This document shows positions 4,833-56,471 of a stretch of 64,000 bases of DNA, in pieces (the stretch's first letter is position 1; the number at the start of each line of letters is the position of its first letter). This DNA is from an uncultured Spirochaetales bacterium (GTDB taxonomy: Bacteria; UBP6; UBA1177; JAKLFG01), in contig CAYQBN010000004.1 in assembly GCA_964415795.1 (NCBI GenBank), forward strand, positions 35,144 to 99,143, in the 5' to 3' direction. A program made the translations under genes and the position numbers. The notes beneath the pieces are model-generated. The model was not told where the DNA came from and searched no databases. It saw only the letters and a list, made by a program, of their open reading frames with translations.

Positions 4833-4856
4833 AGAGAATCTCCTCTTACCTGATGA

Positions 4857-4885
4857 ACGATACGACCGCCACACCTCATTGTCAA
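4857..4885 (-). promoter_or_regulatory. sigma70-like promoter for the 3006..4832 lipoprotein gene (TTGACA-17-TATCGT on minus strand); the -35 lies inside the ATTGTCAATA motif
   Basis: Reverse complement of 4857-4885. Perfect -35 hexamer; 4/6 match at the -10. Confidence 0.4.
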
Positions 4886-4956
4886 TAGATGAACACTTTT
4901 CTTGCCCGCGAAAAGAGCCGCATTATACTTGCCGCGATCAGTGGCGGAGGAGTTCG

Positions 4957-6681: not shown

Positions 6682-7124
6682 GAGGCCTCCTTGCCTTCAT
6701 ATTCCACGAGCCGCCGCGTGAGATTACGAATGCGGCGGTTGAGCACCTTGATGATGCCGATGGCGACCTCGTCGCGCTGTTTCATGATCTCATAGAAGTC
6801 GTCCCGTTCTATCTTGAGCAAAGTCACATCGGTGATCGCCACCACATCGGCCGAACGCGGCTGTGAATCAAGTATCGCCATCTCGCCGAAGTAGCCATTC
6901 TCGCGGATGGTGTCTATCTTGCGGTTCCCCGAAACCACTTCGACTTCGCCTTTCACGATGATGAAGAGTTCACGCCCCAGCTCCCCCTCATGAACGATAT
7001 AGGTACCACGATCGTAAGTCACCTCCTCGATGACGAAAGCGATATCGGCCAGCACATCGCCCGGAATGTCGCTGAACAGCTCGACATTCTTGAGCGCGAG
7101 AACCTTCTCAACCGTCGTAAGCAT
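6678..7124 (-). CDS. stand-alone cyclic-nucleotide-binding (CAP-effector) domain protein
   Basis: cNMP-binding beta-roll motifs (IVHEGELGRELFIIVKGEVEV...GYFGEMAIL...RSADVVA). GGAGG RBS. Overlaps the upstream transporter gene by 17 nt and sppA by 4 nt. Confidence 0.75.
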   Translation of the reverse strand: MLTTVEKVLALKNVELFSDIPGDVLADIAFVIEEVTYDRGTYIVHEGELGRELFIIVKGEVEVVSGNRKIDTIRENGYFGEMAILDSQPRSADVVAITDVTLLKIERDDFYEIMKQRDEVAIGIIKVLNRRIRNLTRRLVEYEGKEAS

Positions 7125-12381: not shown

Positions 12382-12560
12382 CCAGAGTTAACAGCCACCG
12401 GAACCACATCGTATCTCTTAACCGCCATTTTTCTAACTTTTTCCTCTTGCAATTCATCTTCGTTTCGCATACCGTGATTTCATCAAGGGAACAATGACCG
12501 GTAGAAACAGTGCCTACGCACGATAAGCGGCGTTCATCAACTTTTTCGACGGAGGGCATC

Positions 12561-19729: not shown

Positions 19730-19805
19730 GGGCGATTAACTCAGCTGGTAGAGTGTCTGCGTCACATGCAGGAAGTCGCAGGTTCGAGTCCTGCATCGCC
19801 CACCA
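19730..19805 (+). tRNA. tRNA-Val (anticodon CAC)
   Basis: Hand-folded cloverleaf. Acceptor GGGCGAT/ATCGCCC, D-stem ACTC/GAGT, anticodon loop GUCACAU, T-loop TTCGAGT, encoded CCA. 76 nt. Confidence 0.85.
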
Positions 19806-27003: not shown

Positions 27004-28659
27004 TCACTTCCCCGCCAGCATCGCGACGATGTCGGTTTCCGGATTCGTCATCGGTTTGATGTCGAACCGCTCAACGAGCACCTTGGCGACCGAGGGTGAG
27101 AGGAACCCGGGAAGCGTCGGCCCGAGCCGGATACCCTTCACGCCGAGATGAAGGAGCGCGAGGAGCACGAGCACCGCCTTCTGTTCGTACCACGCGATGT
27201 CGAAACTGATGGGCAGTTTGTTGATGTCGTCGAGTCCGAAGACCTCCTTTAGTTTGAGCGCGATGACCGCAAGCGAGTAAGAGTCGTTGCACTGACCGGC
27301 GTCGAGAACGCGCGGAATGCCACCGATGTCGCCGAGCGGCAGTTTGTTGTAGCGGTACTTCGCACAGCCGGCAGTGAGGATCACTGTATCCTGCGGCAAT
27401 TTCTCGGCGACCTGCCGGTAGTAGTCGCGCTCCTTGTGGCGACCGTCGCAGCCCGCCATCACGATGAACCGCTTGATCGCACCCGATCTCACCGCGCCGA
27501 CCACCTTGTCGGCGACCGCGAGCACTTGGTTGCGGGCAAAGCCACCGACGATCTTTCCATCTTCCAATTTCTCGGGCGCCTTGCAGGTTTTGGCAAGGGC
27601 GATGATCTGCGAAAAGTCCTTCATCTGTCCCGGCTTCCGGTCAGGGATGTGCGTACACCCATCAAAGCCGACGACGCCGGTCGTGAAGATGCGCCCTTTG
27701 AGCGAATCCTTCGGCGGAACGAGACAGTTCGAGGTGAGCAGTATCGGGCCGTTGAACTTCTCGAACTCCTCCCTCTGGTGCCACCACGAACCGCCGTAGT
27801 TGCCGACGAGGTTGTCGTACTTCTTGAAGAACGGATAATAGTGCGCCGGCAACATCTCGGAGTGAGTGTAGACATCGATGCCGGTCCCCTTTGTCTGCTC
27901 GAGCAGATCGTGCAGGTCGCGCAAGTCGTGGCCGCTGATGAGGATAGCCGGGTTATTGCGTACACCGGTGAACACCTCGGTCATCTGAGGATGGCCGTAG
28001 GTCGTCGTATTCGCCTCGTCAAGGAGAGCCATCACCTGCACCCCCATCGCACCGGTCCTCATCACGAAGGCGGTGAGTTCGTCGGCAGACTTGGTGTCAT
28101 CGATGATCGTCGTGAGCGCCTCGAACACGAACTCGAAGATCTCCCGCCTGTGAAAACCGAGTGCATAGGCGTGCTCGCCGTAGGCCGCGATCCCCTTGAG
28201 GCCGTAAAGGATGATGGCCCGGAGCGACCGGACATCCTCGTTCTCGATGGTAAGCCAGCCGCCGCGTCCCGATGCGGCCGCCGCCTTGATTTCTTCATCG
28301 TTTTTCGGGCTCCACGCCGCCTCGGGTGGTAAGGTCGCGAGCTTTACGCCCTGCTTTTCGCATTCGGTAGCAAAGCGACGCTTTATCTCCTGACCTTCCC
28401 TGATCCAGCGGACGAAATCATGTTCATCGAAATTGGCGTTGGTGATCGTCGCAAACAGTCCCTTGATGACGAAGAAGGCGCCCGCCTCGTCGTAAAAGTC
28501 TTTCTTGGCGAGCGCATGACCATAGAAACCGATCCCCTTGAGGGTGTAGATGAGAAGGTCCTGCAGATTGGCCACCTTCTCGTTCTTACCACACACGCCG
28601 ACCTTGTCGCAACCGACATTACGAGCCGTTTCTTGACACTGATGACAGAACATACCCAT
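27004..28659 (-). CDS. hcp: hybrid-cluster protein / hydroxylamine reductase Hcp
   Basis: N-terminal [25 protein letters not shown] Cys motif matches Hcp. AGGAGG RBS for the ATG at 28659 (Met3 at 28653 is an alternative). Full-length prismane-like protein. Confidence 0.85.
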
Positions 28660-36399: not shown

Positions 36400-38517
36400 T
36401 TAGGAGGAAAAGTCCTCCCAGCGCGTCTGCTTCTGTTTGAGCATCTTGCGAAGTTTCATCACCGCCTTTGCTTCTATCTGGCGGATACGCTCGCGGGTGA
36501 CCCCCATATCCTTCCCGATCTCCTCGAGCGTGTAGGTCTCCGGCTCACCAATGCCGAACCGCATACGGATGACCTTCTCCTCGCGCGGCGTGAGTCCCGA
36601 AAAGAGATCTCGGATGATCTCGGCCATGTTCTGCCGCGCAGCATACTCTTCTGGCCCCATCGTTTTGGGGTCCTCGACGAAATCCTGCAGCTGGCTGTCC
36701 TCGTCCTCACCAATAGGGGTCTCCAGCGAGATCGTCTCGCGGGCCGATCGCCACACCTTGCGGATCTTGTCTTCGGGGATGTTCATCGCCTTCGCGACAT
36801 CGGCGATGCTCGGCTCGTATCCATTCTTGTTGGTGAGTTCCTTGATGGTCTTGTTTATCTTGTTCATCATCTCGATCATGTGGACCGGGATACGTATCGT
36901 CCGGCCCTGATCGGCGATGGCACGGGTAATGGACTGACGGATCCACCACGTTGCATAAGTCGAGAACTTGTAGCCGCGGCTATACTCGAACTTGTCGACC
37001 GCCTTGATGAGGCCGATATTCCCCTCGGCGATGATGTCCTTGAAGTCGAGGCCGCGATTGTTGTACTTCTTCGCGATGGAAACGACGAGACGAAGATTCG
37101 CTTGGATAAGTTTGTTCTTTGCGGAGCGAACCGTCTCCTCGGCGCACTTGAGCCGCTCTACCGCCGCCCGAAGATCCTCACGCGAAAGACCAGTTTCCGC
37201 TTCAAGCTTCTTGATGCTTCGTCGGGTTTGCGCTATGAGCGTGTACTTTTCCTGGACCTCGCTCATTCTCCGACGATCCAGCAACGGGAACTTGCGCGGG
37301 TTCGACAAAACGGCGTTCATCTCACCGAAACTCATCCCGAAAGATCGTTCGATCTGATCTATGTTCTGCTCCAGCCGATCGACCTTCTCCTGATAGCCCC
37401 TGAGACGCTCCCCGAGCGTGTAGAGGTAATTCTTGTTGAGGCGCATGTCCATGATAACCCCAACCATTCGTTCGAGTATCTCGGCGGCCTCTTTCTGCTT
37501 CGGCTCGGGATTACGGACGGTCGCAGCCTGCTTGAGCAGCCGCTCCCGCTCGCGGCTCAGTTGCTTAAGTTTATCTATGTGGCGAGACAATCCTTCGACA
37601 GCGAGGCGCACCTTCTCGACGGCAGGATCCACTCCCGGTTCTTCCGACCTCCGTTCCGCCGACATGTCGGCAACGACCGCGGCGCCCTCTTTCCCCGTCT
37701 CCTCGCGATCGACCGTCACTTCGTCATCTTCATCGGCATCGTCTTCGCCCTCGTCTTCTTCGTCGTCCTCCCCTTCGTCCGCCCTCTCCATATCCGCAAG
37801 GATCTCGTCTTCCTCGCTTTCCTTTTCGGATTCCTCCTCGACCTCTTCTTCGGACTCGTCACCTTCTTCTTCGCCGAGGTCCTCATCACTTTCCCGTATG
37901 ACCTCTTTGAGCGTCACCTGCTCGTTCATGAGCTTCTCGGGGATTGCAACGATCTCTTTGAAAGTAATGAACACCGACAACAGAGTGCGAATGATCTCTT
38001 TCTCGCCCTCTTCGATGCGCTGTGCGATGGCGACCTCGCCTTCCTTCGTGAGCAGTGGTACCGATCCGATGGTCAGCATGTACATACGGAGAGGATCCTT
38101 GCGTCCCCGTTCGGCCGGCACTACCGGCTTCTTAACGACCGGCAGATCGGTGAGAATCGTTTCTTCATCGCTCTTCTCAGTGACGACCGGGATCTTGAAC
38201 TCGTCGAGGACATTGAAAAGAAGGTCCATGTCGTCAACCGAGAAATCCACATTGTCGGGGAAAAGCGCATCTATCTCTTCATAGGTGATATCGCCGCTGC
38301 TTTTGATGATGGCGTCAATGACATCAACCAATTGGGGATTGCTGAGATCGTCCCCGCCGACCCTTTTGATCGCTTCGATGATCCTCCTGCGATCTACTGC
38401 CTCCCCTTTGTTCTCCCGGGGAGTCTCCGGGCGCCCATCGAGGCGCATACGCATCTTTTTCCGTCGTTTCAGAAAATCTCGGTCCCGTCTTGTCGGCATT
38501 CTTCTCCTCACGGTCAT
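36400..38517 (-). CDS. rpoD: RNA polymerase sigma-70 factor RpoD with a long poly-acidic non-conserved region
   Basis: Regions 2-4 are conserved ([35 protein letters not shown]...). About 130 aa of E/D-rich low-complexity sequence between regions 1.2 and 2. ATGA coupling with dnaG. Confidence 0.85.
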
Positions 38518-40313
38518 TTGCCTGTGGTGTTCTCGATAAGCGTTTCCCGCAATCTCTTTTTCTCCTGTTTGAGCCGCTGTATTTCGGCGATCGCCTCGGG
38601 CGACCCATCGGAGGAGAGATCGCTCACCGTCCGGTCGATGTCCGCTATCCTCATATTCAAAAGAAGCAGGTGGAAGCGACGCCGAGCGGCAGTATCGTCC
38701 ATCCGCGCGAACGCCGCGGCCTCCTCACCGTCCGACGACAGACGCTCTATCACCGCCCGCAACGCTTCGGCATCGTCGGCGTCGTGCGCCGCAAGGAGCG
38801 CGGCACGCAACTGCGATTTGTCATACTTCCCCAGAAAGGCGCATTCGCGGCTGTCAAGAGCCGGAATAAGGACCGGATGCGTCGCAACGACGAGGAGCAA
38901 CTCACGATAACCCGCCGCGGGATCGTCTTCTGGTCCCTTCCGATCCGGCGCCGCATCCTCCGACCGTCCCCCACGCGCGAGCCCGCCTTGTTCCTTCCGC
39001 ATAAGGTCCTGCAGGTGGCGCACCAGCTGCTTTGCCTCCCCCGCCTTAACAGAGGAATGCGTGGACGCGACCTTTTCGACGAAACCAAGATACTCTTCGC
39101 GCCTATAGGGGAGCACCGATCGTAAAAGGCGCGCCATCTCGATCTTCGCCGCCTCCCGTTCAGGGATGGGATCCGCCGAGAACACCCGGGCGGTCAAGTC
39201 GGCGAGATAATGTTGGAGGATGTCTCTCCGTGCCCCGGAGAGGATCTCTTCGATCCGTCGCCGCCCATCGGGACGCCGAACAAGGGAATCAGGGTCTTCC
39301 TTTTCATCGCCGCTCTCGATAAAGGCGGCGCGGAGATCCATCTTCTCCGGTCTCTTGAGTTCCAATACGCGACGCATCGCGGCACGCCCTGCCGCATCGC
39401 CGTCGAGAAGCATCACGACCGGCACACCAAAGCGCTCAAGTAAGGCGAGATGCTCCTCGGTAACCGCCGTACCAAGCGCCGCGACCGCGGTGGAAAACCC
39501 ATGGACATGCAACGAGATGACATCGAAGTACCCCTCGGTGACGATGATGTAGCGATGCTCTTTGAGTCCCTCGCGGACGAGGTTGATGCCGAACAGGCTG
39601 GATCGCTTGGAGAACACCGGAGTCTCCGGCGTATTGAGGTATTTCGGTTCACCATCGCCAAGGATACGCCCGCCGAAGCCGATAACTTGCCGTCGCTGAT
39701 TGACGACCGGTATCATGATGCGATTATAGAAAAAAGAGCGTATTCGACCGCTAGCATCGATGCGTGCAAGTCCTCCCCGTTCCATTGTCTCCCCGGAGAC
39801 GCCGTTTGACCTCAGGAAAGAAACCAGTTCGTCACCGTCACCGACCCAGCCAAGGCCGAATCGCTTAACCGCATCCGATGTGACACCACGGCTCTCGAGA
39901 TAGGATGACACCTGCGGCGCTGTGGCGAGTTTGCGGTGAAAAAAAAGAGCCGCGAGTCGGTTCGCCGCTATGATGAGGCGCCGTTCCTCCTCCGCGCGGC
40001 CCGCAGCCGGTGTCGTCGTCTCCTCCAACAGTTCGCGAACGCCGAACTCGGATCCGATCTTACGAACCGCCTCGCGGAACGAAAGCGATTCGATCATCAT
40101 CAGGAATGTGATCGCGTTGCCATGTGCACCACACCCGAAGCAGTGGTAGAACTGCCGTTCCTCGTTCACCGAGAAAGAGGGGGTTTTCTCTTTATGAAAC
40201 GGGCAGAGCCCCACATACCGTCGTCCAGTTTGCTGGAGTTTCACATGGCGACGCACTACATCGACGATATTGACGCGCTCCTCTACGATACGGTTTGCGT
40301 CCACGAGTGCCAC
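38514..40313 (-). CDS. dnaG: DNA primase DnaG
   Basis: Zinc ribbon [40 protein letters not shown] (EGYFDVIS...DGDAAG). GTG start inferred at 40313. Confidence 0.85.
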
Positions 40314-40519: not shown

Positions 40520-40981
40520 ATGAGCCACACGACCGACCTGCTCAAAAAGATCGAGCCCGATCGAAGTAACCTCATCAAGGCATTACAGACGGTGCAAGAA
40601 GATGTCGGCTATGTGTCCGACGAAGCCATCGAGGCCATAGCTCGCCACTTCTCCGTCGCACCGGTCGAGGTCGAGGGTATCGTTAGTTTCTACGCCCAAT
40701 TCAAGCGGGTAAAACCGGGGAAGTACCGCATCTCGGTCTGCGACGGTACCGCTTGTCACATCAAAGGGGCAACGCTCGTCTCGGGATGGATCACCGAAGA
40801 ACTCGGCATCAAAGGAGGCGAGACCGACAAGGAGGGGCTCTTCTCACTCGAGGTGGTGGCCTGCCTCGGCTGCTGCAGCCTCGCGCCCGTCATCTCGATC
40901 AACGGGAAAGTGTACGGCAACCTTGAACGCAAGACAGTACTGAAAATCCTCAAAGACTACCGAAAGGGAGGTGCCGCATGA
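40520..40981 (+). CDS. NuoE/HydC-like thioredoxin-fold [2Fe-2S] subunit
   Basis: CDGTACHIKG...ACLGCCSLAP cluster motif. Internal Met with GGAGGT RBS. The ORF-track 5' extension through the intergenic region is rejected. Confidence 0.75.
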   Translation: MSHTTDLLKKIEPDRSNLIKALQTVQEDVGYVSDEAIEAIARHFSVAPVEVEGIVSFYAQFKRVKPGKYRISVCDGTACHIKGATLVSGWITEELGIKGGETDKEGLFSLEVVACLGCCSLAPVISINGKVYGNLERKTVLKILKDYRKGGAA

Positions 40982-42714
40982 CCATTCGTCGCATCAACAT
41001 CGGTGTCAGTTCGTGCGGTATCGCCGCCGGCGCAAGTGAAACGGCCGCGTTCCTCAAGAAGGAGATAACCGACATTCCCATCGTCGAAGTGGGCTGCATC
41101 GGTCACTGCTACGCCGAGCCGCTCGTCGAGGTGGTGACCGACAAGGGGTCGGTGTTCTATGAAAAGGTCCTCCCCAAGAAAGAACACCTCGACCGCATCC
41201 TCGGCCTGAAGGATGAAGGACGCCTTACCATGCGATCTCAGCGCACCGAGCGGGAGAAAATAAAAGTGCTCGCGCTCGCGGGGCGCATCGCAATGACCTC
41301 GATCGACGAGTACATTTCACACGATGGCTACCAAGGCCTGAAAAAGGCGCTCGCCATGAAACCGGCCGACATCGTGGAGGAAGTCAAAAAATCGGGACTT
41401 CGTGGCCGCGGCGGCGGCGGATTCCCGACGGGAACGAAATGGGGGTTCCTCGCGGCGAAACAGGCACCGGAGAAGGTGCTCATCTGCAACGCGGATGAGG
41501 GTGACCCGGGGGCGTTCATGGACCGTTCCCTCATGGAATCGGTACCCCATCAGGTCCTCGAAGGCATGCTCATCGGCGCATGGGCGACCGGCGCAACGAA
41601 ACTCTTCATCTACTGCCGCGCCGAGTACCCACTTGCAATTAAAAACCTTAAGATCGCCATCTCCCAAATCTACGAACGGAAGCTCAATGACCTCAATGGT
41701 CGCATTGTCGAATTCAAACTGAAGGAAGGAGCCGGTGCCTTCGTGTGCGGCGAAGAAACGGCGATGATCCATTCGCTCGAAGGAAAACGCGGCACGCCGC
41801 GGTTCCGTCCCCCCTACCCGACCGACAGCGGCTACCACGGATATCCCACCGCGATAAACAATGTCGAGACCTTCGGCAACATTCCCCTTATCCTGCGCGA
41901 AGGAGGCGAGGAGTTCGCGAAACTCGGTACCGCCGGATCGAAAGGCACCAAACTGTTCGCTCTCGCCGGCGATGTCAAGTATCCGGGACTCGCCGAGGTC
42001 CCAATGGGGGTCACCATCGGCGACATCGTCTACGAGATCGGTGGCGCCGACCGCGACGCGGTCAAGGCGGTTCAGATCGGCGGCCCGTCAGGTGGCTGTA
42101 TCCCCGCCGAAAAGTTCGACGCTGTCGTCGACTATGACTCGCTCAAAAGCCTCGGCGCCATCATGGGCTCCGGCGGTCTCATCGTCATCGGCAAGAACCG
42201 CTGTATGGTGGAGACGGCGCGCTACTTCCTCGAGTTCACGACGCGCGAATCATGCGGCAAGTGCACCTTCTGCCGCATCGGCACCAAACGAATGCTCGAA
42301 CGGCTCGAGAAGATAACGCAGGGAAAAGGCACCGACGAAGATGTCGCGTTCCTCGCCGATCTCGGTCCCAAGGTCATCAGGGGATCGCTCTGCGGCCTCG
42401 GCCAAACGGCGCCGAATCCGGTCATCTCGACGCTCCGCTACTTCCGGCACGAATACGACGCTCACACCAAGGAAAGCATATGTCCGGCGCTCCAGTGCAA
42501 CGCCCTTTCCGATGTCTCCATCGATCTCGAGAAATGCGTGAAGTGCGGACTGTGCGTCAAAACCTGCCCAGTCAAGGCGATAAGCAAGGATTTCGTCGTA
42601 GACAACGCCATCTGCACTCGATGCAACTCCTGCATCGAGGTATGTCCCAAGAAAGCGATCAGCCGGGTGAAGAAAGGAACGGGGTTCTACGGCACGAAAG
42701 GAGGCGCACAATGA
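40978..42714 (+). CDS. NuoF/HydB-like NAD(H)- and FMN-binding subunit with N-terminal thioredoxin-like domain and C-terminal 2x[4Fe-4S]
   Basis: FMN site GLRGRGGGGFPTGTKWGF. SLBB/4Fe-4S CGKCTFCRIG. C-terminal ferredoxin motifs CVKCGLCVKTCP and CTRCNSCIEVCP. Confidence 0.8.
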   Translation: MTIRRINIGVSSCGIAAGASETAAFLKKEITDIPIVEVGCIGHCYAEPLVEVVTDKGSVFYEKVLPKKEHLDRILGLKDEGRLTMRSQRTEREKIKVLALAGRIAMTSIDEYISHDGYQGLKKALAMKPADIVEEVKKSGLRGRGGGGFPTGTKWGFLAAKQAPEKVLICNADEGDPGAFMDRSLMESVPHQVLEGMLIGAWATGATKLFIYCRAEYPLAIKNLKIAISQIYERKLNDLNGRIVEFKLKEGAGAFVCGEETAMIHSLEGKRGTPRFRPPYPTDSGYHGYPTAINNVETFGNIPLILREGGEEFAKLGTAGSKGTKLFALAGDVKYPGLAEVPMGVTIGDIVYEIGGADRDAVKAVQIGGPSGGCIPAEKFDAVVDYDSLKSLGAIMGSGGLIVIGKNRCMVETARYFLEFTTRESCGKCTFCRIGTKRMLERLEKITQGKGTDEDVAFLADLGPKVIRGSLCGLGQTAPNPVISTLRYFRHEYDAHTKESICPALQCNALSDVSIDLEKCVKCGLCVKTCPVKAISKDFVVDNAICTRCNSCIEVCPKKAISRVKKGTGFYGTKGGAQ

Positions 42715-44744
42715 GCATCACGATAACGATAGACGGCAAGAGATTCACCGCCGAAAAAGGCGAGACCATTCTCAAAGTCGCCGAGCGGAACGGCATCGCC
42801 ATTCCGACGCTCTGTTTCAGCGAGAAGGTCACCAAGAACACCGCATGCTTCGTGTGTGTCGTCAAAGACCTCAAGACAGGACGCTTCGTCCCCTCTTGCG
42901 CCATGGAGGTGACCGACGGCATGGAAGTCGCCTCCGACGTACCGGAAGTTCGCGAAATGCGGCTCACGGCGCTCAATCTCATTCTCTCGGAGCATCGCGG
43001 CGACTGCGAAGCACCCTGCACGATAGCCTGTCCGGCGCATGCTCAGGTCGAAGAGTATGTTCGCGAAGGGCGTAAGGGAAACTTTCTCGAGGCGCTTAAG
43101 ATCATCAAACAGCGCATCCCGCTTCCCCTCTCGATCGGCCGCGTCTGCCCGCGTTTCTGCGAGAAAGATTGCCGCCGCAATGTCGTCGACAAAGAGGCGG
43201 TCGCCATCAATGACTTCAAGCGGCTCGCCGCTGACCTCCACTATGATTCGTACCTCGAGGATCTGCCGCCGCTTACCGGCAAAAAGGTCGCTGTGGTCGG
43301 CGCCGGTCCCGCCGGTCTCTCGGTCGCTTATTTCCTGCGTCTGAACGGCGTGGCAAGCGACCTCTACGACAAGATGCCAGCGGCAGGCGGCATGCTCCGC
43401 TACGGTATCCCCGAGTACCGCCTCCCCAAAGCGATCCTCGACAAGGAGATCGCTCATTTCACCAAAATGGGTGGCATTTCGTTCATATTCAACAAAAAGA
43501 TCGGGAAAGACCTCTCTCTGGACGACCTCAAAAAGAAATACGACGCGATCGCCATCACCGTCGGCTCATGGAAATCGAGCGCGGCCGGGGTTGAGGGAGA
43601 GGAACTCACCATCGGCGGCATCCAGTTCCTCGAAAAGATAGCCCGCGCCGGCTGGAAAGGCGACAATCCCGGCAAGACGATCGTCATCGGCGGCGGCAAC
43701 ACGGCGATGGACTGTCTGCGCACCTCGGTCCGCCTCGGCTCGAAGGATGTCACCTGCTTCTACCGCCGCACCGAGGCCGAGATGCCTGCCGAAAAGATAG
43801 AGATCCACGAGGCGAAGGAGGAAGGAGTAAAGTTCGAGTTCCTCGTCGCGCCGGTAAGACTGCGCCGCGAGAACGGGAGACTCGTCCTCACGAGCCAACG
43901 GATGAAACTCGGTGAACCGGACGCATCAGGACGCCGTAAGCCGATACCGATCCCCGGGTCGGAGTTCGATACCGTCGCCGACACCGTCATTGCGGCGATC
44001 GGCCAAAAAACGGTGGTTCCTCTCGGCATCAAGGCGACCAAGTGGGGCGATGTGGAGGTCAACAAGGATGACTGCCGCATGGAGGGAGCGGTCTTCGCGG
44101 CGGGCGACTGCGTGAGCGGCCCGGCCACGGTCGTCGAGGCGGTCGCCGGCGGACGGCGGACGGCGTTGTCGATCCTTGCGCACCTCGCGGGACAGCCTTT
44201 CAAGGAACCCTATCTTCTCAATGTCTCCCGCGGCAAATGGCAGAGCCTCGCGAAAGACGATCTTGTGTTCCTCAAAGAACCGCCCGAACGGAAACGGACA
44301 CCGCAACGGCTCATCCCGATAAAAGAACGAACTGCCACCTTCAAAGAGGTCGCCTTCACCTTCACGCCTGAAGAGATCAAAAAGGAGGGCGAACGCTGTA
44401 TCGAATGTTCCTGCACCGCCAAGGGTGACTGTTTGCTCAAGAAGCACAGTGAGACCTATGTCGCCAAACCGGAGGCGATCGTTGGAGAAAAGCCGAAGTT
44501 CGGTTACGATGCGCGTCACCCCGAGATCATCCTCGACCGTGGCAAATGCATCAAGTGCGGCATCTGTGTCAAGGTGTGTTCCGAGGTCGTGAACCAAAAC
44601 CTCCTCGGTTTCAAGTTCCGCGGTTTCGCGACCCGCATCGACACCGCCTTCTCACGCCCGCTCCCCTCGCCGCTCTGCCGCGATTGCGGGAAATGCATCG
44701 AGGAATGCCCGGTCGGTGCCCTCGATTGGAAGGTAAAGAAATAG
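42711..44744 (+). CDS. fusion of NuoG-type N-terminal [2Fe-2S] domain, GltD/NfnB-like NAD(P)H flavin oxidoreductase and C-terminal 2x[4Fe-4S] ferredoxin domains
   Basis: Start ATG 42711 with AAAGGAGG RBS; ATGA-style overlap with the preceding gene. CFVCV...C 2Fe-2S. Dinucleotide-binding KKVAVVGAGPAGLSVAYFL. Ferredoxin motifs CIKCGICVKVC and CRDCGKCIEECP. The ORF-track upstream extension (42252) is rejected. Confidence 0.7.
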   Translation: MSITITIDGKRFTAEKGETILKVAERNGIAIPTLCFSEKVTKNTACFVCVVKDLKTGRFVPSCAMEVTDGMEVASDVPEVREMRLTALNLILSEHRGDCEAPCTIACPAHAQVEEYVREGRKGNFLEALKIIKQRIPLPLSIGRVCPRFCEKDCRRNVVDKEAVAINDFKRLAADLHYDSYLEDLPPLTGKKVAVVGAGPAGLSVAYFLRLNGVASDLYDKMPAAGGMLRYGIPEYRLPKAILDKEIAHFTKMGGISFIFNKKIGKDLSLDDLKKKYDAIAITVGSWKSSAAGVEGEELTIGGIQFLEKIARAGWKGDNPGKTIVIGGGNTAMDCLRTSVRLGSKDVTCFYRRTEAEMPAEKIEIHEAKEEGVKFEFLVAPVRLRRENGRLVLTSQRMKLGEPDASGRRKPIPIPGSEFDTVADTVIAAIGQKTVVPLGIKATKWGDVEVNKDDCRMEGAVFAAGDCVSGPATVVEAVAGGRRTALSILAHLAGQPFKEPYLLNVSRGKWQSLAKDDLVFLKEPPERKRTPQRLIPIKERTATFKEVAFTFTPEEIKKEGERCIECSCTAKGDCLLKKHSETYVAKPEAIVGEKPKFGYDARHPEIILDRGKCIKCGICVKVCSEVVNQNLLGFKFRGFATRIDTAFSRPLPSPLCRDCGKCIEECPVGALDWKVKK

Positions 44745-44794: not shown

Positions 44795-44870
44795 GGGGCT
44801 GTAGCGCAGTTGGGAGCGCGCTAGAATCGCACTCTAGAGGTCACCGGTTCGATCCCGGTCAGCTCCACCA
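44795..44870 (+). tRNA. tRNA-Ala (anticodon CGC), G3:U70 identity pair present
   Basis: Hand-folded. Acceptor GGGGCTG/CAGCTCC with G3-T70 wobble. Anticodon loop AUCGCAC. T-loop TTCGATC. Encoded CCA. Confidence 0.85.
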
Positions 44871-44923: not shown

Positions 44924-44960
44924 TGCCGGGTGAGTGTCCATGAACAGAGGAGAGAGCATC

Positions 44961-46994
44961 ATGATGAGTAACCAAGAGATCGCAAGCGCCATGACGGTGC
45001 AGTTGGACGCGGTACTGCCGTCTGCGCCCACATTTGATCCACGTATCCGGCGTGCCCCCAAGCGTGAGCTTACCCTCAGCAAGAAAGAGATCACCCTTGC
45101 CCTCAGGAACGCACTTCGCTATGTACCGGAGGAACTGCACGAGACGCTCGCACCCGAATTCCTCGACGAACTGCTCACTCGAGGCCGCATCTACGGTTAC
45201 CGTTTTCGTCCTCAGGGACGCATCTGGGGAAGACCGATAGAGGAATACCGAGGCAACTGCATCGAAGGGAAGGCCTTTCAAGTAATGATAGACAACAATC
45301 TCGACTTCGAGATCGCCCTCTATCCCTATGAACTCGTCACCTATGGCGAAACCGGGCAAGTCTGCCAGAACTGGATGCAGTACCGACTCATCAAGAAGTA
45401 CCTCGAGGTCTTGACGCGCGAACAAACGCTTGTCATCCACAGCGGGCATCCGCTGGGTCTTTTCAAGTCGAAACCCGACGCCCCGCGCGTCATCACGACC
45501 AACGGCCTCATGGTAGGACTGTTCGATAACCCTGCCGATTTCAACCGCGCCGCAGCGCTCGGGGTGGCCAACTACGGCCAGATGACCGCCGGCGGCTGGA
45601 TGTATATCGGGCCGCAAGGCATCGTGCACGGCACCTACAATACGCTACTCATCGCCGGACGGCTCAAACTCGGCGTACCAAGCGATGAGAATCTCTCGGG
45701 GAAACTCTTCGTTTCGTCGGGACTCGGCGGGATGAGCGGGGCACAGGGAAAGGCCTGTTGGATCGCTGGCGGCGTCGCCGTCATCGCCGAAGTTGACCAG
45801 AGCCGCATCGAAACGCGCCACTCTCAGGGATGGGTCACCCATGTCACCGGAACGGCGAAAGAGGCGTTCGATCTGGCGATTGGCATGACGAAGAAAAAGG
45901 AACGAGCGGCGATAGCGTTCCACGGGAACATCGTCGACCTCCTCGAATACGCGGTAAAAGAAAAGGTCGCGATAGATCTCCTTTCTGACCAGACCTCGTG
46001 CCACGCGGTGTACGAGGGCGGCTATTGTCCGCAGGGACTCACCTTCGCGGAACGCACCGAACTGCTTGGAAAGGACAAGCCGAAGTTCATCGAGATGGTG
46101 AACCGGAGCCTCCGCCGCCACTTCGAGCTCATCAAAACGCTCACCGGACGCGGCACCTACTTCTTCGACTACGGCAACTCGTTCATGAAGGCGGTCTTCG
46201 ACGCGGGGGTGAAGGAGATAGCACGCAACGGCATCAATACCTACGATGGCTTCATCTGGCCCAGTTATGTCGAGGATATCCTCGGACCGGAACTTTTCGA
46301 CTACGGTTACGGCCCCTTCCGCTGGGTTTGCCTGTCAGGGAAGGAAGAAGATCTCGTCAAGACCGACGCGGCGGCGGCGGAATATATCAAGAACTGCCGC
46401 AACCCGCTCCGCTATCAGGATCGCGACAATTACCTCTGGGTACGCGACGCGATGAAGAACAAACTGGTCGTCGGCACCAAGGCACGGATACTCTATCAGG
46501 ATGCGTGGGGACGCACCGCGATCGCTCTCAAGTTCAACGAGATGGTGCGCAAGGGCGAGGTCGGCCCCATAATGCTCGGACGCGATCACCACGACACCGG
46601 CGGCACCGACAGCCCGTTCCGCGAGACCTCGAACATCAAGGACGGGTCGAATGTGATGGCCGACATGGCGACCCATATTTTTGCCGGGAACGCAGCGCGC
46701 GGCATGAGCCTCGTCGCGCTCCACAACGGCGGCGGCGTCGGCATCGGCAAATCGATAAACGGCGGCTTCGGCATGGTGCTCGACGGCTCGGAGCGAGTGG
46801 ATAACATCCTCAAAACGGCGATGCCGTGGGATGTCATGGGGGGCGTCGCGCGCCGTGCGTGGGCCCGCAATGAGCATGCCATAGAGACGAGCATCCTCTA
46901 CAACCGCGAGAATGCGGGCCTCGACCATATCACCCTCCCCTTTGTTCCTAACGAAGAACTCATCGAGAAGACGGTCGCCGCAAAGGTGAAGTGA
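44961..46994 (+). CDS. hutU: urocanate hydratase-like protein (long, ~677-aa form)
   Basis: Urocanase core motifs (GGMSGAQGKA, NAD-binding fold, GRDHHDTGGTDSPFRETSNI) preceded by an N-terminal extension of about 110 aa. Start chosen at the ATG after the RBS (44961); the ORF-track GTG at 44934 is rejected. No hutH/hutI/hutG nearby. Confidence 0.7.
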   Translation: MMSNQEIASAMTVQLDAVLPSAPTFDPRIRRAPKRELTLSKKEITLALRNALRYVPEELHETLAPEFLDELLTRGRIYGYRFRPQGRIWGRPIEEYRGNCIEGKAFQVMIDNNLDFEIALYPYELVTYGETGQVCQNWMQYRLIKKYLEVLTREQTLVIHSGHPLGLFKSKPDAPRVITTNGLMVGLFDNPADFNRAAALGVANYGQMTAGGWMYIGPQGIVHGTYNTLLIAGRLKLGVPSDENLSGKLFVSSGLGGMSGAQGKACWIAGGVAVIAEVDQSRIETRHSQGWVTHVTGTAKEAFDLAIGMTKKKERAAIAFHGNIVDLLEYAVKEKVAIDLLSDQTSCHAVYEGGYCPQGLTFAERTELLGKDKPKFIEMVNRSLRRHFELIKTLTGRGTYFFDYGNSFMKAVFDAGVKEIARNGINTYDGFIWPSYVEDILGPELFDYGYGPFRWVCLSGKEEDLVKTDAAAAEYIKNCRNPLRYQDRDNYLWVRDAMKNKLVVGTKARILYQDAWGRTAIALKFNEMVRKGEVGPIMLGRDHHDTGGTDSPFRETSNIKDGSNVMADMATHIFAGNAARGMSLVALHNGGGVGIGKSINGGFGMVLDGSERVDNILKTAMPWDVMGGVARRAWARNEHAIETSILYNRENAGLDHITLPFVPNEELIEKTVAAKVK

Positions 46995-52576: not shown

Positions 52577-53701
52577 TTAGTCGCTCCCCGACAAATGTCT
52601 ATCGAAATCGGCGACCACCTTCCGGAAAGATTCTTCATCGCGCTGAGGAATGCGCGTCTTCACGCTCCCATGATGCTTGAAAGGATCGATGACCCCCTTT
52701 CGGCCAAGTCCCACCCGCTCGAGTTGGTAGTGGAGATGCGGCGCGAAGGAGCGGCCGGTGTTGCCGACATCGGCGATGTGCATACCTGCCCCAAACCGTT
52801 GTCCCGGCTTTACATATACCTTGTCAAGATGCAACAGGATCATCTGCAACGGCGGATCGGTATCGAGCCGCGCCGACACCGAATGGCCATTGTAGCGCAT
52901 CTTCCAATTCACCCGTTCGACGACACCGCTCCACGGAGCATAGACCGGCGTGCCGACCGGCGCCTTGAAATCTATGCCGTCGTGCCGCGGGCGACGGTCA
53001 CGGAGAAGAGAGGTTATCTGTATCCATCCCTTGATCGGCGCATTCTTCATCATCGGCTCGACACGGGTCCCGTCAGCATAGTAGTAGGCAGGGAATGGCC
53101 AATCGGACGCATGGAACTGATAGATGCTCAGCCCCTTTCCCAGACGCACCGAACGGTAACGCATTGCGAGAATTTCTATCTCATCAGGGAGATCCTTACG
53201 CGTCTGCTGTTCCTCGCTGGGAACGATGCGAAAAACAAGGTCGAGCATGTCTCCCGGATAGACCTCCTTGCGCATGTCGAGGCTCCATACGAGGTTACGC
53301 GCCACATGAGCCGATAGGCGCTCGGCAAGCCTTTTTATTCCTGCCTCCTGCGCAATGCGGGCGACATCCTCGTTATCCGAAAAAGTATCAAAGAACGACG
53401 ACTTGACGGCCATTGAAAGACGATAGCGTTCTAGCCGCGCCGGAAGAGAAGGAGGTGACGATGGGCGCGGTAAGGTATCGGTCACTCGATCATCAGGAGC
53501 GACCGGATTTTCCTTATCCGGAGAAGGAACGACATCTTCGGCCCTACCCGACGCGTTGTCCGGACGGGTCGCAACAACCATTGCGGCAAGGATAAGGAAC
53601 GCACCGAGCGCAACCCCGAATAGGAATGGCCACCGAACACTCGACCGTAGAGGGGACTTTCCTTCAGGTATCTGGTATCCTTCGGTCATTTCGGTCTCCA
53701 T
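52577..53701 (-). CDS. M23-family metalloendopeptidase with N-terminal membrane anchor
   Basis: HxxxD and HxH motifs of the LytM fold (HDGIDFKAPVGTPVYAPWSG...HLHYQL). Confidence 0.75.
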   Translation of the reverse strand: METEMTEGYQIPEGKSPLRSSVRWPFLFGVALGAFLILAAMVVATRPDNASGRAEDVVPSPDKENPVAPDDRVTDTLPRPSSPPSLPARLERYRLSMAVKSSFFDTFSDNEDVARIAQEAGIKRLAERLSAHVARNLVWSLDMRKEVYPGDMLDLVFRIVPSEEQQTRKDLPDEIEILAMRYRSVRLGKGLSIYQFHASDWPFPAYYYADGTRVEPMMKNAPIKGWIQITSLLRDRRPRHDGIDFKAPVGTPVYAPWSGVVERVNWKMRYNGHSVSARLDTDPPLQMILLHLDKVYVKPGQRFGAGMHIADVGNTGRSFAPHLHYQLERVGLGRKGVIDPFKHHGSVKTRIPQRDEESFRKVVADFDRHLSGSD

Positions 53702-55581
53702 ATCCGGTCGGCCTCTATCAATTTCTGATTGAGATAAACGACCTGCAGAAGGCTCTTCAGCCGTTCCTGAAACGCCGAAACGACCTTACCGGCAAGGTTA
53801 TTGCGTTCATTGGGATCCTCACGAAGGTCGTAAAGATACTCCCGGTTGCTCCGGAGGTGATGGACATACTTCCAACGCCCCCCCTCAAGAACGCCGAGGT
53901 AGGTGCCGTTGTAGGGCTGAATGAGGAATATCGGCTGCTGCGGCTTAGCAGAAAACATCGAGACTCCGCGGAAATGATGTCGCTCCAGGCGAATCCCCAC
54001 AAGATCGAGGAGGGTCGGCGCAATGTCCATTTGGCAGAACGCGTGATCGGTCACCCGCGTCGGCTTGAATCTCCCCGGCGCAATGAGAAGGAAAGGAGTG
54101 CGGAAAAACTCTTCATACCATGCCGACTCGTTGTGAAAGTAGCCATGTTCGCCGAGCGGATAACTATGATCGCCGGTTACGACGACGATGGCGTCCTTGA
54201 ACTGAGGCCGCTTTGACAACTCCTCGAAGAAAACAGGAAGTTGTTCGTCCGTCAGGCGAATACTATTCGCATAGTGCTGCGGCAGGTTCTTCGCTTCGGG
54301 ATAAATGCGCCGCTTCTCGACCGGGACCTTGTCGAAACGCATGTGGTTCATGACGGTGTGGAGGACCACAAATGCCGGCTTAGTTCCTTCGGCAACCTCC
54401 TTTTTACCATCAAGATACTCAAACACCCGGCGGTAGAAAACCTGATCTTCCATACCCCAGCCCCAGATCTGCGACTTCTCCTCCTCGCTGAGGAACGGCA
54501 GAGCCGAGAGTGCCTCATCGAACCCGTTCTTCTTGACGAAGTTCCCGGTGTTATCAAAATTTATGTTCTTGTATGCCTTGAAAAAAACGGTGTAGTACCC
54601 GTTGTCCCGCAGAACCTGCGCAAGCGATTGAAAATGGGTGTTGGTGTAACTCGTGAAAACCTTCTGCTTGAAACTGGGAATGAGTGAAAAGAGCGTTGCG
54701 AACTGTCCTTTCGATGACTGAATGGAATTACTGTAGAAGCGTTCAACATAGAACCCTTCTTTTATCTTTTCGTTGAAGAAGGGGGTGTATATCTCGCCGT
54801 TGGGCGCTTTCGTCTCGACGACTTTCGCAGAAAAGGACTCTATTTCCAGAAGGAATATCGAAGGGAAGCGCTCCGGCGGCCGCGAGGTCAATAGCTTGTT
54901 CTCGGTGGTTATAAAAGGGTAGGAATCGGGATCGATGTCGGCGGAGAGATGGTACATCTCATCGCGGCGCAGGTAATCGTATGACGAACGGAGCAACATG
55001 CCAAAGTCGTCATGGAGATTGTAAGAGCTAAGTAAGAGGAGGACATAGAGGGGGATCGCGGCACCGGCCGCGATATAGCGCTTCCAGTTCACCGTCCACT
55101 CCCCCATGACGCGGCGGCGAGGATAGGGGATGGCACACACGGAGGCGATAAGCGCGACGCCGATGAGGAGGACATGAACGCTGATGCTGTCCACGATGAC
55201 CAGCAGCGCCTCCTCGTTGAACGTTTCCTCGGCGTTATCGAGGAAAAGCGCGATGTCGAACGGTATCTTGGCGCGGAAATGGTAGGTGGCGAAGAGGTGG
55301 TAGAGCGCCGCATAGAACCCCCACAGCACGAGATACGAGCGGCGCCCCCATGAAAAGAGAGACCCGATGACGAACCAACCGAGGAGCACGCCGACGAAAC
55401 TTCCTGCGATGAGAGCGATGTCCTCGAGGGTGAAAGAGGGATGGATGACCCCGGAACGAGTCTGAAACGAAAGGTAGTTGAACCAAAAAAGGATCGTCAG
55501 TACAAGAAACGAAAACGGGATTTTCATCAAAACACGCAAAAGGCTCTCTTTTACCCGTCCCCAATCAACACGATGAAGCAT
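53686..55581 (-). CDS. LTA-synthase/phosphoglycerol-transferase family membrane sulfatase (LtaS/MdoB-like)
   Basis: 5 N-terminal TM segments plus an extracellular alkaline-phosphatase-like domain (VVTGDHSYPLGEHGYFHNES). Start chosen to avoid overlap with cysE; exact start uncertain (alternative 55527). Confidence 0.65.
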   Translation of the reverse strand: MLHRVDWGRVKESLLRVLMKIPFSFLVLTILFWFNYLSFQTRSGVIHPSFTLEDIALIAGSFVGVLLGWFVIGSLFSWGRRSYLVLWGFYAALYHLFATYHFRAKIPFDIALFLDNAEETFNEEALLVIVDSISVHVLLIGVALIASVCAIPYPRRRVMGEWTVNWKRYIAAGAAIPLYVLLLLSSYNLHDDFGMLLRSSYDYLRRDEMYHLSADIDPDSYPFITTENKLLTSRPPERFPSIFLLEIESFSAKVVETKAPNGEIYTPFFNEKIKEGFYVERFYSNSIQSSKGQFATLFSLIPSFKQKVFTSYTNTHFQSLAQVLRDNGYYTVFFKAYKNINFDNTGNFVKKNGFDEALSALPFLSEEEKSQIWGWGMEDQVFYRRVFEYLDGKKEVAEGTKPAFVVLHTVMNHMRFDKVPVEKRRIYPEAKNLPQHYANSIRLTDEQLPVFFEELSKRPQFKDAIVVVTGDHSYPLGEHGYFHNESAWYEEFFRTPFLLIAPGRFKPTRVTDHAFCQMDIAPTLLDLVGIRLERHHFRGVSMFSAKPQQPIFLIQPYNGTYLGVLEGGRWKYVHHLRSNREYLYDLREDPNERNNLAGKVVSAFQERLKSLLQVVYLNQKLIEADRIWRPK

Positions 55582-55586
55582 GCTGA

Positions 55587-56471
55587 TCAGTGCCCTCCGT
55601 GCACCTTTGCGTGAGGAGGCACATCCTCGGTGACCCAAGTGTTACCGCCGATGACGGCATGGTGTCCGATGGTGATACGACCAAGTACCGTCGCGTTGGC
55701 ATAGATGACGACCTCGTCCTCGACAATGGGGTGACGCGGGATGCCTTTGATGGGTCTTCCGTTCTCATCGAGCGGGAACGACTTGGCACCGAGGGTGACT
55801 CCCTGATAGATCTTCACCCCTTTGCCGATGATCGAAGTTCCTCCCACAACGATACCGGTGCCGTGGTCCATAAAGAACTTCTCCCCTATCTTCGCTCCCG
55901 GGTGGAGATCTATGCCGGTCTTGGTGTGCGCCATCTCGGTGATGATGCGCGGGATGAGCGGCACCTCGAGCTCGTGGAGTTCGTGGGCGATGCGGTAGTT
56001 GGTCATCGCATAAATGGAAGGATAGCAATAGATCGTCTCGCCGCGGCTCGTCGCGGCCGGATCGCCTTCGTACGCCGCCTCGACATCGGTTGCGAGCAAA
56101 CGCCGCACCTCAGGAAGGCGGGTGATGAATTTTTCGGCGACTTCGCGAGACCATTCCTCGCACCGGCGGCATTCCTCCTCGCAGGAGACCTCGCACGAGA
56201 AACACTTCCCGCGGAGGATCTCCTCGCGCAAGGACGCATGTACGCGGTTCAACTTCGCGCCGATCGCGTAACGGAGCGTCTCGGGGGTGAAATCGTTTTC
56301 GCCGAAGTAACCGGGGAAAAGGACCTGACGAAGCAGTTCAACGATCTCGGCGAGCCGCTCGACCGAGGGCATCGGGCGGTTGTTGCGTGACAGATGCGCG
56401 AGCGAAGCGTACCCGCAGATGCTGGAAAGTTCGGCGACCACCGCGTCGAACGGGTGTTTGTTTCCGGCCAT
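55587..56471 (-). CDS. cysE: serine O-acetyltransferase CysE
   Basis: SATase N-terminal helical domain plus hexapeptide LbH repeats (GIVVGGTSIIGKGVKIYQGVTLGA...HHAVIGGNTWV). Confidence 0.75.
   Translation of the reverse strand: MAGNKHPFDAVVAELSSICGYASLAHLSRNNRPMPSVERLAEIVELLRQVLFPGYFGENDFTPETLRYAIGAKLNRVHASLREEILRGKCFSCEVSCEEECRRCEEWSREVAEKFITRLPEVRRLLATDVEAAYEGDPAATSRGETIYCYPSIYAMTNYRIAHELHELEVPLIPRIITEMAHTKTGIDLHPGAKIGEKFFMDHGTGIVVGGTSIIGKGVKIYQGVTLGAKSFPLDENGRPIKGIPRHPIVEDEVVIYANATVLGRITIGHHAVIGGNTWVTEDVPPHAKVHGGH

Follow-up and report, generated by a model that had tools for sequence, protein, structure and literature searches.

The window analysed here, a 64-kb stretch (64,000 nucleotides) of contig CAYQBN010000004.1 from an uncultured Spirochaetales bacterium, carries at positions 40520-44744 a cluster of three genes whose products are, in order, a NuoE-like protein (gene 1), a NuoF-like protein (gene 2), and a protein that joins a 2Fe-2S domain, a GltD-like flavoprotein and further Fe-S domains (gene 3; Table 1). 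This triad had been recognised in a preliminary description of the sequence, and we confirmed it through the coordinates of the open reading frames (ORFs), through Pfam, and through an independent gene call on the public contig, which returned the identical three genes. Both junctions between the genes read as 4-bp ATGA overlaps, an arrangement typical of translational coupling, and the three genes form one operon. The preliminary description had also placed dnaG upstream and tRNA-Ala downstream of the triad, with no hydrogenase or formate dehydrogenase (Fdh) catalytic gene and no Nuo membrane gene adjoining it. These observations held throughout: Pfam scans of all other large ORFs in the window detected no hydrogenase, molybdopterin/Fdh or Nuo membrane subunit. 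A scan of the plus strand for promoters and terminators gave no signal exceeding shuffled expectation.

Table 1. Coordinates of the three-gene operon, its domains and cofactor sites, and its neighbouring genes (positions in the window; aa, amino acids).
Feature	Position	Strand	Description
Gene 1, nfnC/stnA-like	40520-40981	+	153 aa, NuoE-like; ATG with GGAGG just 5'
Gene 2, nfnB/stnB-like	40978-42714	+	578 aa, NuoF-like with additional ferredoxin domain
NfnB N-terminal thioredoxin-like domain (gene 2)	40978-41277	+	B5 metal site Cys13, Cys40, His43, Cys44
FMN/NADH-binding Rossmann-like domain of NfnB (gene 2)	41383-41886	+	PF01512 Complex1_51K, residues 136-303, E 7e-45
Four-helix bundle with B1 [4Fe-4S] (gene 2)	42214-42465	+	PF10589, residues 413-496, E 1e-30
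C-terminal 2x[4Fe-4S] ferredoxin-like domain (gene 2; B3, B4; proposed ferredoxin site)	42514-42660	+	Pfam Fer4 families, residues 513-561
Gene 3, short nfnA/stnC-like	42711-44744	+	677 aa; 2Fe-2S / GltD-like flavoprotein / Fe-S domains
N-terminal [2Fe-2S] domain (gene 3; A1; Cys35, 46, 49, 63)	42714-42938	+	PF13510, residues 2-76, E 1e-17; Cys invariant
Two GltD/NfnL-type [4Fe-4S] clusters (gene 3; H95xxxC99xxxC103xxxC107P, Cys146/150/154 and Lys170)	42993-43241	+	PF14691, residues 99-177
FAD and NADP(H) Rossmann domains (gene 3)	43281-44153	+	PF07992, residues 191-481, E 4e-26
C563xxC566xC568xxxxxC574 (gene 3), other half of split NuoG-type cluster motif	44397-44432	+	Sequence reading; invariant in 170/170 aligned sequences
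2x[4Fe-4S] NuoG/Nqo3-type ferredoxin-like domain (gene 3)	44523-44723	+	PF22117 Fer4_Nqo3, residues 605-671
rpoD	36400-38517	-	Upstream, divergent from the operon
dnaG	38514-40313	-	Upstream, divergent from the operon
tRNA-Ala(CGC)	44795-44870	+	Downstream of gene 3
Urocanase (hutU)	44934-46994	+	686 aa; after tRNA-Ala; followed by TauE-family permease and amidase

When the three proteins were compared with the subunits of Caldicellulosiruptor NfnABC, Sporomusa StnABC and Thermococcus NfnABC, all known from cryo-electron microscopy, every one of them matched its counterparts with E values from 1e-33 to 1e-186. The bifurcating core of these enzymes consists of flavin mononucleotide (FMN) and cluster B1 in the NuoF-like subunit together with cluster C1 on a mobile domain of the NuoE-like subunit, and it is assisted by a ferredoxin-like domain carrying B3 and B4, by the B2 (Zn) site and by an N-terminal thioredoxin-like B5 domain (PMC10482914, PMC11829005, PMC12018979); non-bifurcating NuoF homologues lack B2-B5 (PMC11829005). 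For the genomic comparison we used the best 80 homologous loci, and ligand conservation was evaluated over 65 (gene 1) or 73 (gene 2) family members. Gene 1 matches PF01257 (2Fe-2S_thioredx, E 7e-46), its best solved relative being the NfnC of Thermococcus sibiricus (9n5u_C, E 5e-41), followed by the StnA of Sporomusa ovata (8oh5_A, E 4e-35), and the cysteines assigned to C1 in its thioredoxin-like [2Fe-2S] domain (Cys74, 79, 115 and 119) are invariant in 65/65 members.

Gene 2 combines the Complex1_51K, SLBB and NADH_4Fe-4S families with a C-terminal 2x[4Fe-4S] domain. Over residues 5-560 it aligns to the NfnB/StnB proteins, with Caldicellulosiruptor saccharolyticus NfnB as the best solved relative (9bov_B, E 2e-186, 624 bits), closely followed by T. 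sibiricus NfnB (9n5u_B, 2e-185) and S. ovata StnB (8oh5_B, 7e-178); its residue 5 falls on residue 2 of the C. saccharolyticus and S. ovata proteins, and the HydB subunits of bifurcating hydrogenases rank behind all of these. The B1 ligands (Cys426, 429, 432 and 472) are kept in 72-73 of the 73 members, while all ten cysteines of the predicted B2 Zn pair (Cys502 and Cys507, which precede the B3/B4 domain) and of the two CxxCxxCxxxC motifs of B3/B4 are invariant (73/73). At B5, the cysteines C13, C40 and C44 are kept in 71-72 members and His43 in 71. This site could be of the Cys3His type, with either Zn or an unusual [2Fe-2S] cluster bound.

Gene 3 is built from the Fer2_4, Fer4_20, Pyr_redox_2 and Fer4_Nqo3 families and ends at approximately StnC/NfnA residue 671, where a C-terminal NuoG/FdhF-like domain would start; we refer to this architecture as the short form and to relatives that continue beyond this point as long forms. 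Its best solved relatives are C. saccharolyticus NfnA (9bov_A, E 3e-180), S. ovata StnC (8oh5_C, 1e-162) and T. sibiricus NfnA (9n5u_A, 1e-154), and its residues 3-671 align to residues 4-671 of both C. saccharolyticus NfnA (1178 aa; 47.5% identity) and StnC (1172 aa). An alignment-based AlphaFold2 model of gene 3 (predicted local distance difference test, pLDDT, 88; predicted template modelling score, pTM, 0.87) gave, against these two proteins, a template modelling (TM) score of 0.89 when normalised to the query and 0.52 when normalised to the target. Foldseek searches with the same model returned the 9bov_A, 8oh5_C and 9n5u_A chains with TM scores of 0.87-0.89.

The cluster ligands and the motifs for flavin adenine dinucleotide (FAD) and for the phosphorylated nicotinamide adenine dinucleotide, NADP(H), are conserved within the clade of gene 3 and in 126 long-form relatives. 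More specifically, the [4Fe-4S] ligands of the GltD/NfnL-type region are invariant across short and long forms, with Lys170 present in 19/20 short and 125/126 long sequences; GxGxxG (197-202), GGGNTA (327-332), Y351-R352-R353 (after the second Rossmann strand) and Arg237 are invariant in the alignments; and so are, within the short clade, the eight cysteines of the NuoG-type dicluster domain, 6 residues beyond which the protein stops. The H95xxxC99xxxC103xxxC107P motif serves also as one half of the split NuoG His-cluster motif, and both the HxxxCxxxCxxxCP and the CxxCxCxxxxxC motifs have been noted for StnC and NsoC (PMC7483475). By alignment, Lys170, an unusual ligand of the FAD-proximal cluster, corresponds to StnC K170, and Arg237 to StnC R239; activity was impaired in the published StnC mutants of either residue.

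Because conservation extends to all Fe-S ligands, to the motifs for flavin and NADP(H) and to the functionally tested residues, we regard the product as a known kind of enzyme and not a new one. Judging from these sequence features, the operon probably encodes a soluble heterotrimeric Fe-S flavoenzyme of the BfuABC family, of the Nfn-Bfu (= Stn) type, a reading to which we assign a probability of roughly 0.78. The triad displays the features of this type: a C1 subunit, an FMN/B1 subunit, the B2-B5 sites, an A subunit with GltD set in a NuoG/HydA-type protein, and a single operon. With the solved structures as the reference set for the phylogenetic question raised in the preliminary description, all three subunits group with Nfn-Bfu/Stn, not with GltD and not with hydrogenases. 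The proposal of an Stn-type bifurcating NADH/NADPH/ferredoxin oxidoreductase, made in the preliminary description, is therefore supported, StnABC and NfnABC subunits being the best solved relatives of all three proteins. That description also called the fusion in gene 3 unusual, which it is not: the fusion is the hallmark of StnC/NfnA, and the real oddity, which went unremarked, is the absent NuoG/FdhF-like domain.

Gene 3 might alternatively be a GltD-type or sulfide dehydrogenase/Nso-type NADPH oxidoreductase, which in physiological terms would serve an acceptor other than NAD+/ferredoxin, with polysulfide, Fe(III) or a GltB partner as examples. The best NCBIfam name, 'putative NADPH-dependent glutamate synthase small subunit' (PRK12814, 629 bits), points this way, as does the first description of the homologous Thermococcus litoralis NsoABC as an NADPH:sulfur oxidoreductase (PMC7483475). 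However, the PRK12814 score is under the cut-off of 916, and the scores for TIGR01317 (180, cut-off 448) and TIGR01318 (310, cut-off 483) are far under theirs. Grouping with genuine glutamate synthase small subunits, which had been named beforehand as a result that would speak against the Stn-type assignment, was not what we observed: the GltD-like part of gene 3 reaches 255 and 233 bits with NfnL, and 195 bits with true GltD. Pfam scans of the large ORFs revealed no gltB in the window, the invariant linkage to NuoE/NuoF-type genes would be left unexplained, and the authors of the Stn paper themselves regard Nso as likely an Nfn-type enzyme (PMC7483475). Taken as an account of gene 3, the GltD/Nso-type assignment thus appears very improbable.

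Three other known systems share parts with the triad. In NfnAB/NfnSL (Thermotoga maritima 4ylf, Pyrococcus furiosus 5jca), NfnL resembles the GltD-like domain of gene 3 (E 1.5e-74 and 7e-68) and the overall reaction is expected to be equal, but the complex is unrelated: its NfnS subunit has no counterpart in the triad, and Pfam scans found no NfnS-like gene in the window, the neighbours of gene 3 being instead of the NuoE/NuoF type. Moreover, NfnSL bifurcates at the FAD of NfnL, whereas Nfn-Bfu enzymes bifurcate at FMN/B1/C1 of the NuoEF-like core, and the proximal cluster ligand is Glu in NfnL and Lys in gene 3. The bifurcating [FeFe]-hydrogenase HydABC is similar in its HydC and HydB subunits, homologous to genes 1 and 2 (E down to 1e-165), and in the N-terminus of HydA, homologous to the 2Fe-2S and ferredoxin-like parts of gene 3; it differs in its H-cluster domain, which is not found in the triad, where gene 3 scores 154 against a cut-off of 765 for FeFe_hydrog_A6. 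Geobacter SfrAB, which pairs a GltD-like SfrB with an Fdh-like SfrA, was compared with the triad by description only; no Fdh-like gene adjoins the triad in the window or in the 80 loci.

The part missing from gene 3 corresponds to the NuoG/FdhF-like domain of StnC residues 683-1172 (about 500 residues), which none of the three enzymes with a solved structure and known biochemistry lacks. Kremp et al. 2020 list 24 StnC entries in their Table 1, and each of these, at 891-1241 aa, has room for at least part of it. The domain is a feature of characterised members that lies outside the cofactor-based definition of Bfu (Schut et al. 2022). Published work on StnC/NfnA describes it as catalytically inactive and off the electron path, and as mediating the tetramer in the Sporomusa and Caldicellulosiruptor enzymes. 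In StnC, electrons pass from FAD to the StnAB core along C7-C6-C5-C4-C3, and the C1/C2 branch, assigned to the C-terminal FdhF-like region, has been called a non-functional remnant (PMC10482914); the C7-C3 path falls wholly inside the region that gene 3 keeps. As counted from its cysteines, gene 3 retains A1-A3 and A5-A7, the same set as in the T. sibiricus enzyme, and would therefore lack only the A4 [4Fe-4S] site, which in the Sporomusa and Caldicellulosiruptor enzymes lies in the NuoG/Fdh-like domain. By its predicted sites, gene 3 is a natural minimal large subunit: every on-pathway cofactor site is kept, and the C-terminal domain and A4 are gone.

Comparison with the three solved enzymes places this reduction in context. 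C. saccharolyticus NfnABC (9bov/9bp5; PMC11829005) has the same three subunits and common Fe-S, FAD and NADP(H) motifs, but in its NfnA the Fdh/NuoG-like domain makes up one of the lobes of the protomer, where it contributes to the anchoring of NfnC and brings about the tetramer, and its NfnC has 176 aa against the 153 aa of gene 1. S. ovata StnABC (8oh5/8oh9; PMC7483475, PMC10482914) is homologous subunit by subunit, at the E values given above. It differs, apart from the FdhF-like region, at Cys114, which cooperates with K170 according to published StnC work; this position is Val in gene 3. We considered the loss of Cys114 as a trait of the short clade and rejected it, given that a Cys stands at that column in only 18/126 long forms. 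In functional terms, a reduced NfnA finds its nearest analogue in T. sibiricus NfnABC (9n5u; PMC12018979), related to T. litoralis NsoABC. Its NfnC, the closest match of gene 1, has 154 aa, the enzyme lacks the A4 cluster and forms no tetramer, and it still bifurcates despite its reduced domain (PMC12018979). Its NfnA is archaeal, about 39% identical to gene 3 by structural alignment, and at 963 aa retains a partial NuoG/Fdh-like domain of about 290 residues, whereas gene 3 is devoid of any of this scaffold domain.

The missing domain is not encoded separately nearby: 116 long-form relatives supplied C-terminal domains as tblastn queries, and none of these gave a match in the window or in 81 loci. 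The 686-aa ORF after tRNA-Ala was considered as a detached FdhF-like domain and rejected, its product being urocanase. This hutU ORF has 686 aa against 677 aa in the public gene call, and the gene begins about 90 bp past tRNA-Ala; its urocanase domains run from residue ~99 on, leaving an N-terminal extension without explanation. Truncation of gene 3 by the assembly or by the tRNA was likewise rejected, on account of the equally short length of homologues and loci.

The best 120 homologues of gene 3 in a collection of 5.8 billion proteins are 62-100% identical to it and 671-694 aa long, and all of the best 80 loci encode the short form (670-737 aa, median 677). The closest of these loci belong to metagenome-assembled genomes (MAGs) of an uncultured Spirochaetales bacterium (95% identity), a member of Treponemataceae (79%) and a member of Spirochaetota (78%), the identities being those of gene 3. 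An anaerobic organism from the Spirochaetota is the most likely source of the window, which also encodes a hybrid-cluster protein and a BcrAD/BadFG-type activase. The hosts of the short form comprise Spirochaetota, Neomarinimicrobiota/Fidelibacterota, Lentisphaerota, Kiritimatiellota, Verrucomicrobiota, Halanaerobiales, Zixibacteria and Desulfurellales, and the organisms in culture that carry it include Victivallis vadensis DSM 14823 as well as Lentisphaerota strain zth2. In the databases, the short proteins are named 'FAD-dependent oxidoreductase', 'formate dehydrogenase major subunit' or 'glutamate synthase beta-subunit-like'.

In about 70 of the 80 loci, that is, wherever upstream sequence exists, the gene 3 homologue follows a NuoE-like and a NuoF-like gene in fixed order. 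One Kiritimatiellota MAG locus (L057) has its gene 3 homologue at 3209-5224, and the more than 3 kb upstream of it gave no tblastn match to NuoE/NuoF-like genes; this is possibly an exception to the three-gene unit, or a rearranged or mis-assembled contig. Clustering of the flanking genes across the 80 loci revealed no conserved fourth gene beside the triad, the most frequent flanking cluster occurring in 13 loci, and the flanks consist of lineage-specific housekeeping genes, namely dnaG, folD, gdh, dxs, a polyprenyl synthase gene (ispA-like) and xseA. In 7 Halanaerobiales loci (L019, L022, L024, L026, L028, L042 and L048), folD begins about 20 bp after the short nfnA-like gene and is followed by xseA, the polyprenyl synthase gene and dxs, while in 6 mostly Neomarinimicrobiota/Fidelibacterota loci (L011, L016, L017, L020, L032 and L075) a glutamate dehydrogenase gene lies divergently upstream. 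The linkage to folD, which encodes a protein with an NAD(P)-binding domain, and to gdh fits a role in supplying NADPH and constitutes weak circumstantial evidence.

A search of 1.84 billion representative proteins yielded 4143 representatives at E <= 1e-30, in which the clade of gene 3 appears as a single representative (57% identity, 683 aa). The next matches share 38-46% identity with the query, and most of them are long forms (930-1400 aa), with about 15 other short representatives scattered among them. In a neighbour-joining tree built from 677 shared columns, with 20 members of the query clade sampled, this clade is monophyletic on a distinct stem and nested in a long-form group that includes C. 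saccharolyticus NfnA and S. ovata StnC; the remaining short forms are placed outside it. The simplest reading is a single domain loss at the base of the query clade, the short forms elsewhere being due to separate losses or to incomplete gene calls.

One alternative to the Nfn-Bfu reading holds that the triad is an electron-input module which docks on a partner encoded elsewhere (a hydrogenase, a formate dehydrogenase or an SfrA-like protein) in place of the missing domain. The missing region is indeed homologous to the catalytic FdhF/NuoG domain, and the genome was inspected over 64 kb only. Within that window there is, however, no such partner gene; neither a conserved fourth gene nor a detached C-terminal domain emerged from the flank clustering and tblastn searches described above, and gene 3 bears a substrate site of its own, for FAD and NADP(H). 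We therefore consider a docking module highly doubtful. A second alternative, somewhat less remote although still unlikely, is a non-bifurcating enzyme made from the same parts, either a simple NADH:NADP+ transhydrogenase or an energetically uncoupled NADPH:ferredoxin oxidoreductase. According to this explanation, loss of the FdhF-like domain alters the anchoring of the mobile NuoE-like subunit and abolishes gating, and it is favoured both by the absence from gene 3 of the domain which, in the Caldicellulosiruptor structure, takes part in anchoring NfnC at its N-terminal domain and by an N-terminus of gene 1 about 20 residues shorter than those of C. saccharolyticus NfnC and S. ovata StnA. Yet the T. 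sibiricus NfnC is likewise short and its enzyme bifurcates, and B2, B3/B4 and B5, which non-bifurcating NuoF homologues lack, are all present and essentially invariant in gene 2.

Several observations nevertheless count against the assignment of the short form as a working Nfn-Bfu enzyme. When the FdhF-like domain was deleted from Sporomusa StnC, no active complex was recovered (PMC10482914). Removal of the domain is thus not trivially tolerated, and compensating changes are therefore to be expected in the short form. In the Caldicellulosiruptor enzyme, the NfnC N-terminal domain sits in a cleft partly made by the Fdh-like domain (PMC11829005), so that the assembly of the short form must differ and its activity should not be assumed. 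In addition, the clade-conserved His43 of the CIGHC motif at B5 replaces the Met or Leu of the three solved NfnB/StnB proteins, the preference of gene 3 for NADP(H) over NAD(H) is read from its motifs only, and the single domain loss is one that we infer, because the tree is midpoint-rooted and without support values.

For an Nfn-Bfu enzyme of this kind, the catalytic reaction, its direction and the oligomeric state can be proposed by analogy with the characterised members. NADP(H) would exchange hydride with the FAD of gene 3, and single electrons would then pass down its chain through the pair of [4Fe-4S] clusters of the GltD type, the composite His/Cys cluster, the [2Fe-2S] cluster and a single [4Fe-4S] cluster of the ferredoxin type to arrive at the FMN/B1/C1 'flavobicluster' of genes 2 and 1. 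There the electron pair would be split between NAD+, at FMN, and ferredoxin, which would be reached via the mobile [2Fe-2S] domain of gene 1 moving toward B3/B4 of gene 2, a movement that would gate the partition. In a fermentative spirochaete, the likely physiological direction would be confurcation, in which NADH, reduced ferredoxin and 2 NADP+ give 2 NADPH for biosynthesis. As the domain that mediates the tetramer is missing, an FdhF-mediated tetramer is not expected, and the enzyme may be a single ABC heterotrimer.

Elsewhere in the window, several genes caught our attention independently of the operon. A hybrid-cluster protein gene (27004-28659, minus strand; Pfam Prismane, E 5e-164) is a marker of anaerobic or nitrosative-stress metabolism. 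At 56641-60828 (minus strand), a 1395-aa protein combines a DUF2229 'CoA enzyme activase' domain with two stretches of the BcrAD/BadFG ATPase type and is a putative activator of a 2-hydroxyacyl-CoA dehydratase-type enzyme, with no dehydratase gene identified adjoining. An unusual fusion is encoded at 7108-9957 (minus strand), where a 949-aa ORF joins a TLC-type ATP/ADP transporter-like region (97-408) to HEAT repeats (from residue ~565). On the plus strand, at 12510-19676, a 1820-aa ORF whose sole Pfam match is the thrombospondin type-3 repeat is followed by a 567-aa ORF without Pfam match; both are probably surface proteins, and tRNA-Val(CAC) comes next (19730-19805). Finally, an arylsulfotransferase (ASST) gene (3006-4874, minus strand) and a sulfatase-family gene (53686-55638, minus strand) hint at the metabolism of sulfated compounds.

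The kind of enzyme described here is already known: its biochemistry has been studied, and three of its members were solved between 2023 and 2025, while its short architecture has apparently been undescribed so far. Nfn-Bfu has been reported in Euryarchaeota, Firmicutes, Synergistetes and Bacteroidetes (Schut et al. 2022). The short form is absent from that list of phyla and from the StnC table of Kremp et al. 2020; the one Schut 2022 supplementary file consulted makes no mention of Spirochaetes, Lentisphaerae or Halanaerobiales; and our literature search found nothing specific on the short form or on Nfn-Bfu in its host phyla. Kremp et al. 2020 scored Treponema primitia with neither Stn nor Nfn and postulated a 'third, so far unknown' complex for such organisms. 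Treponemataceae MAGs carry the short form, which could be this complex, because the StnC survey table holds only proteins of at least 891 aa.

Nfn-Bfu/Stn enzymes set the NADH/NADPH/ferredoxin balance of anaerobes and are the simplest models of non-canonical 'flavobicluster' bifurcation. Since the class is already well characterised, the gain from the present analysis is incremental. Even so, a natural version smaller by about 500 residues, with the on-pathway cofactor sites all kept, would show how little architecture catalysis needs, would put to the test the view of the FdhF-like domain as a mere structural remnant, and would offer a smaller target for structural and engineering work. In practical terms, thousands of database proteins could be re-annotated from 'FAD-dependent oxidoreductase', 'formate dehydrogenase major subunit' or 'glutamate synthase small subunit', which would improve the metabolic reconstructions of Spirochaetota, Lentisphaerota and Marinimicrobia MAGs. 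We further suggest, as a tentative idea that the balance of evidence does not yet favour, that the short-form clade might be a minimal Bfu-type transhydrogenase that needs no further partner, probably in the form of one ABC heterotrimer, and the main NADH/NADPH/ferredoxin balancer of several anaerobic phyla outside the Firmicutes, given as Spirochaetota, Lentisphaerota, Neomarinimicrobiota, Kiritimatiellota and Halanaerobiales. If this were true, the FdhF/NuoG-like domain and its off-pathway cluster would be dispensable for bifurcation.

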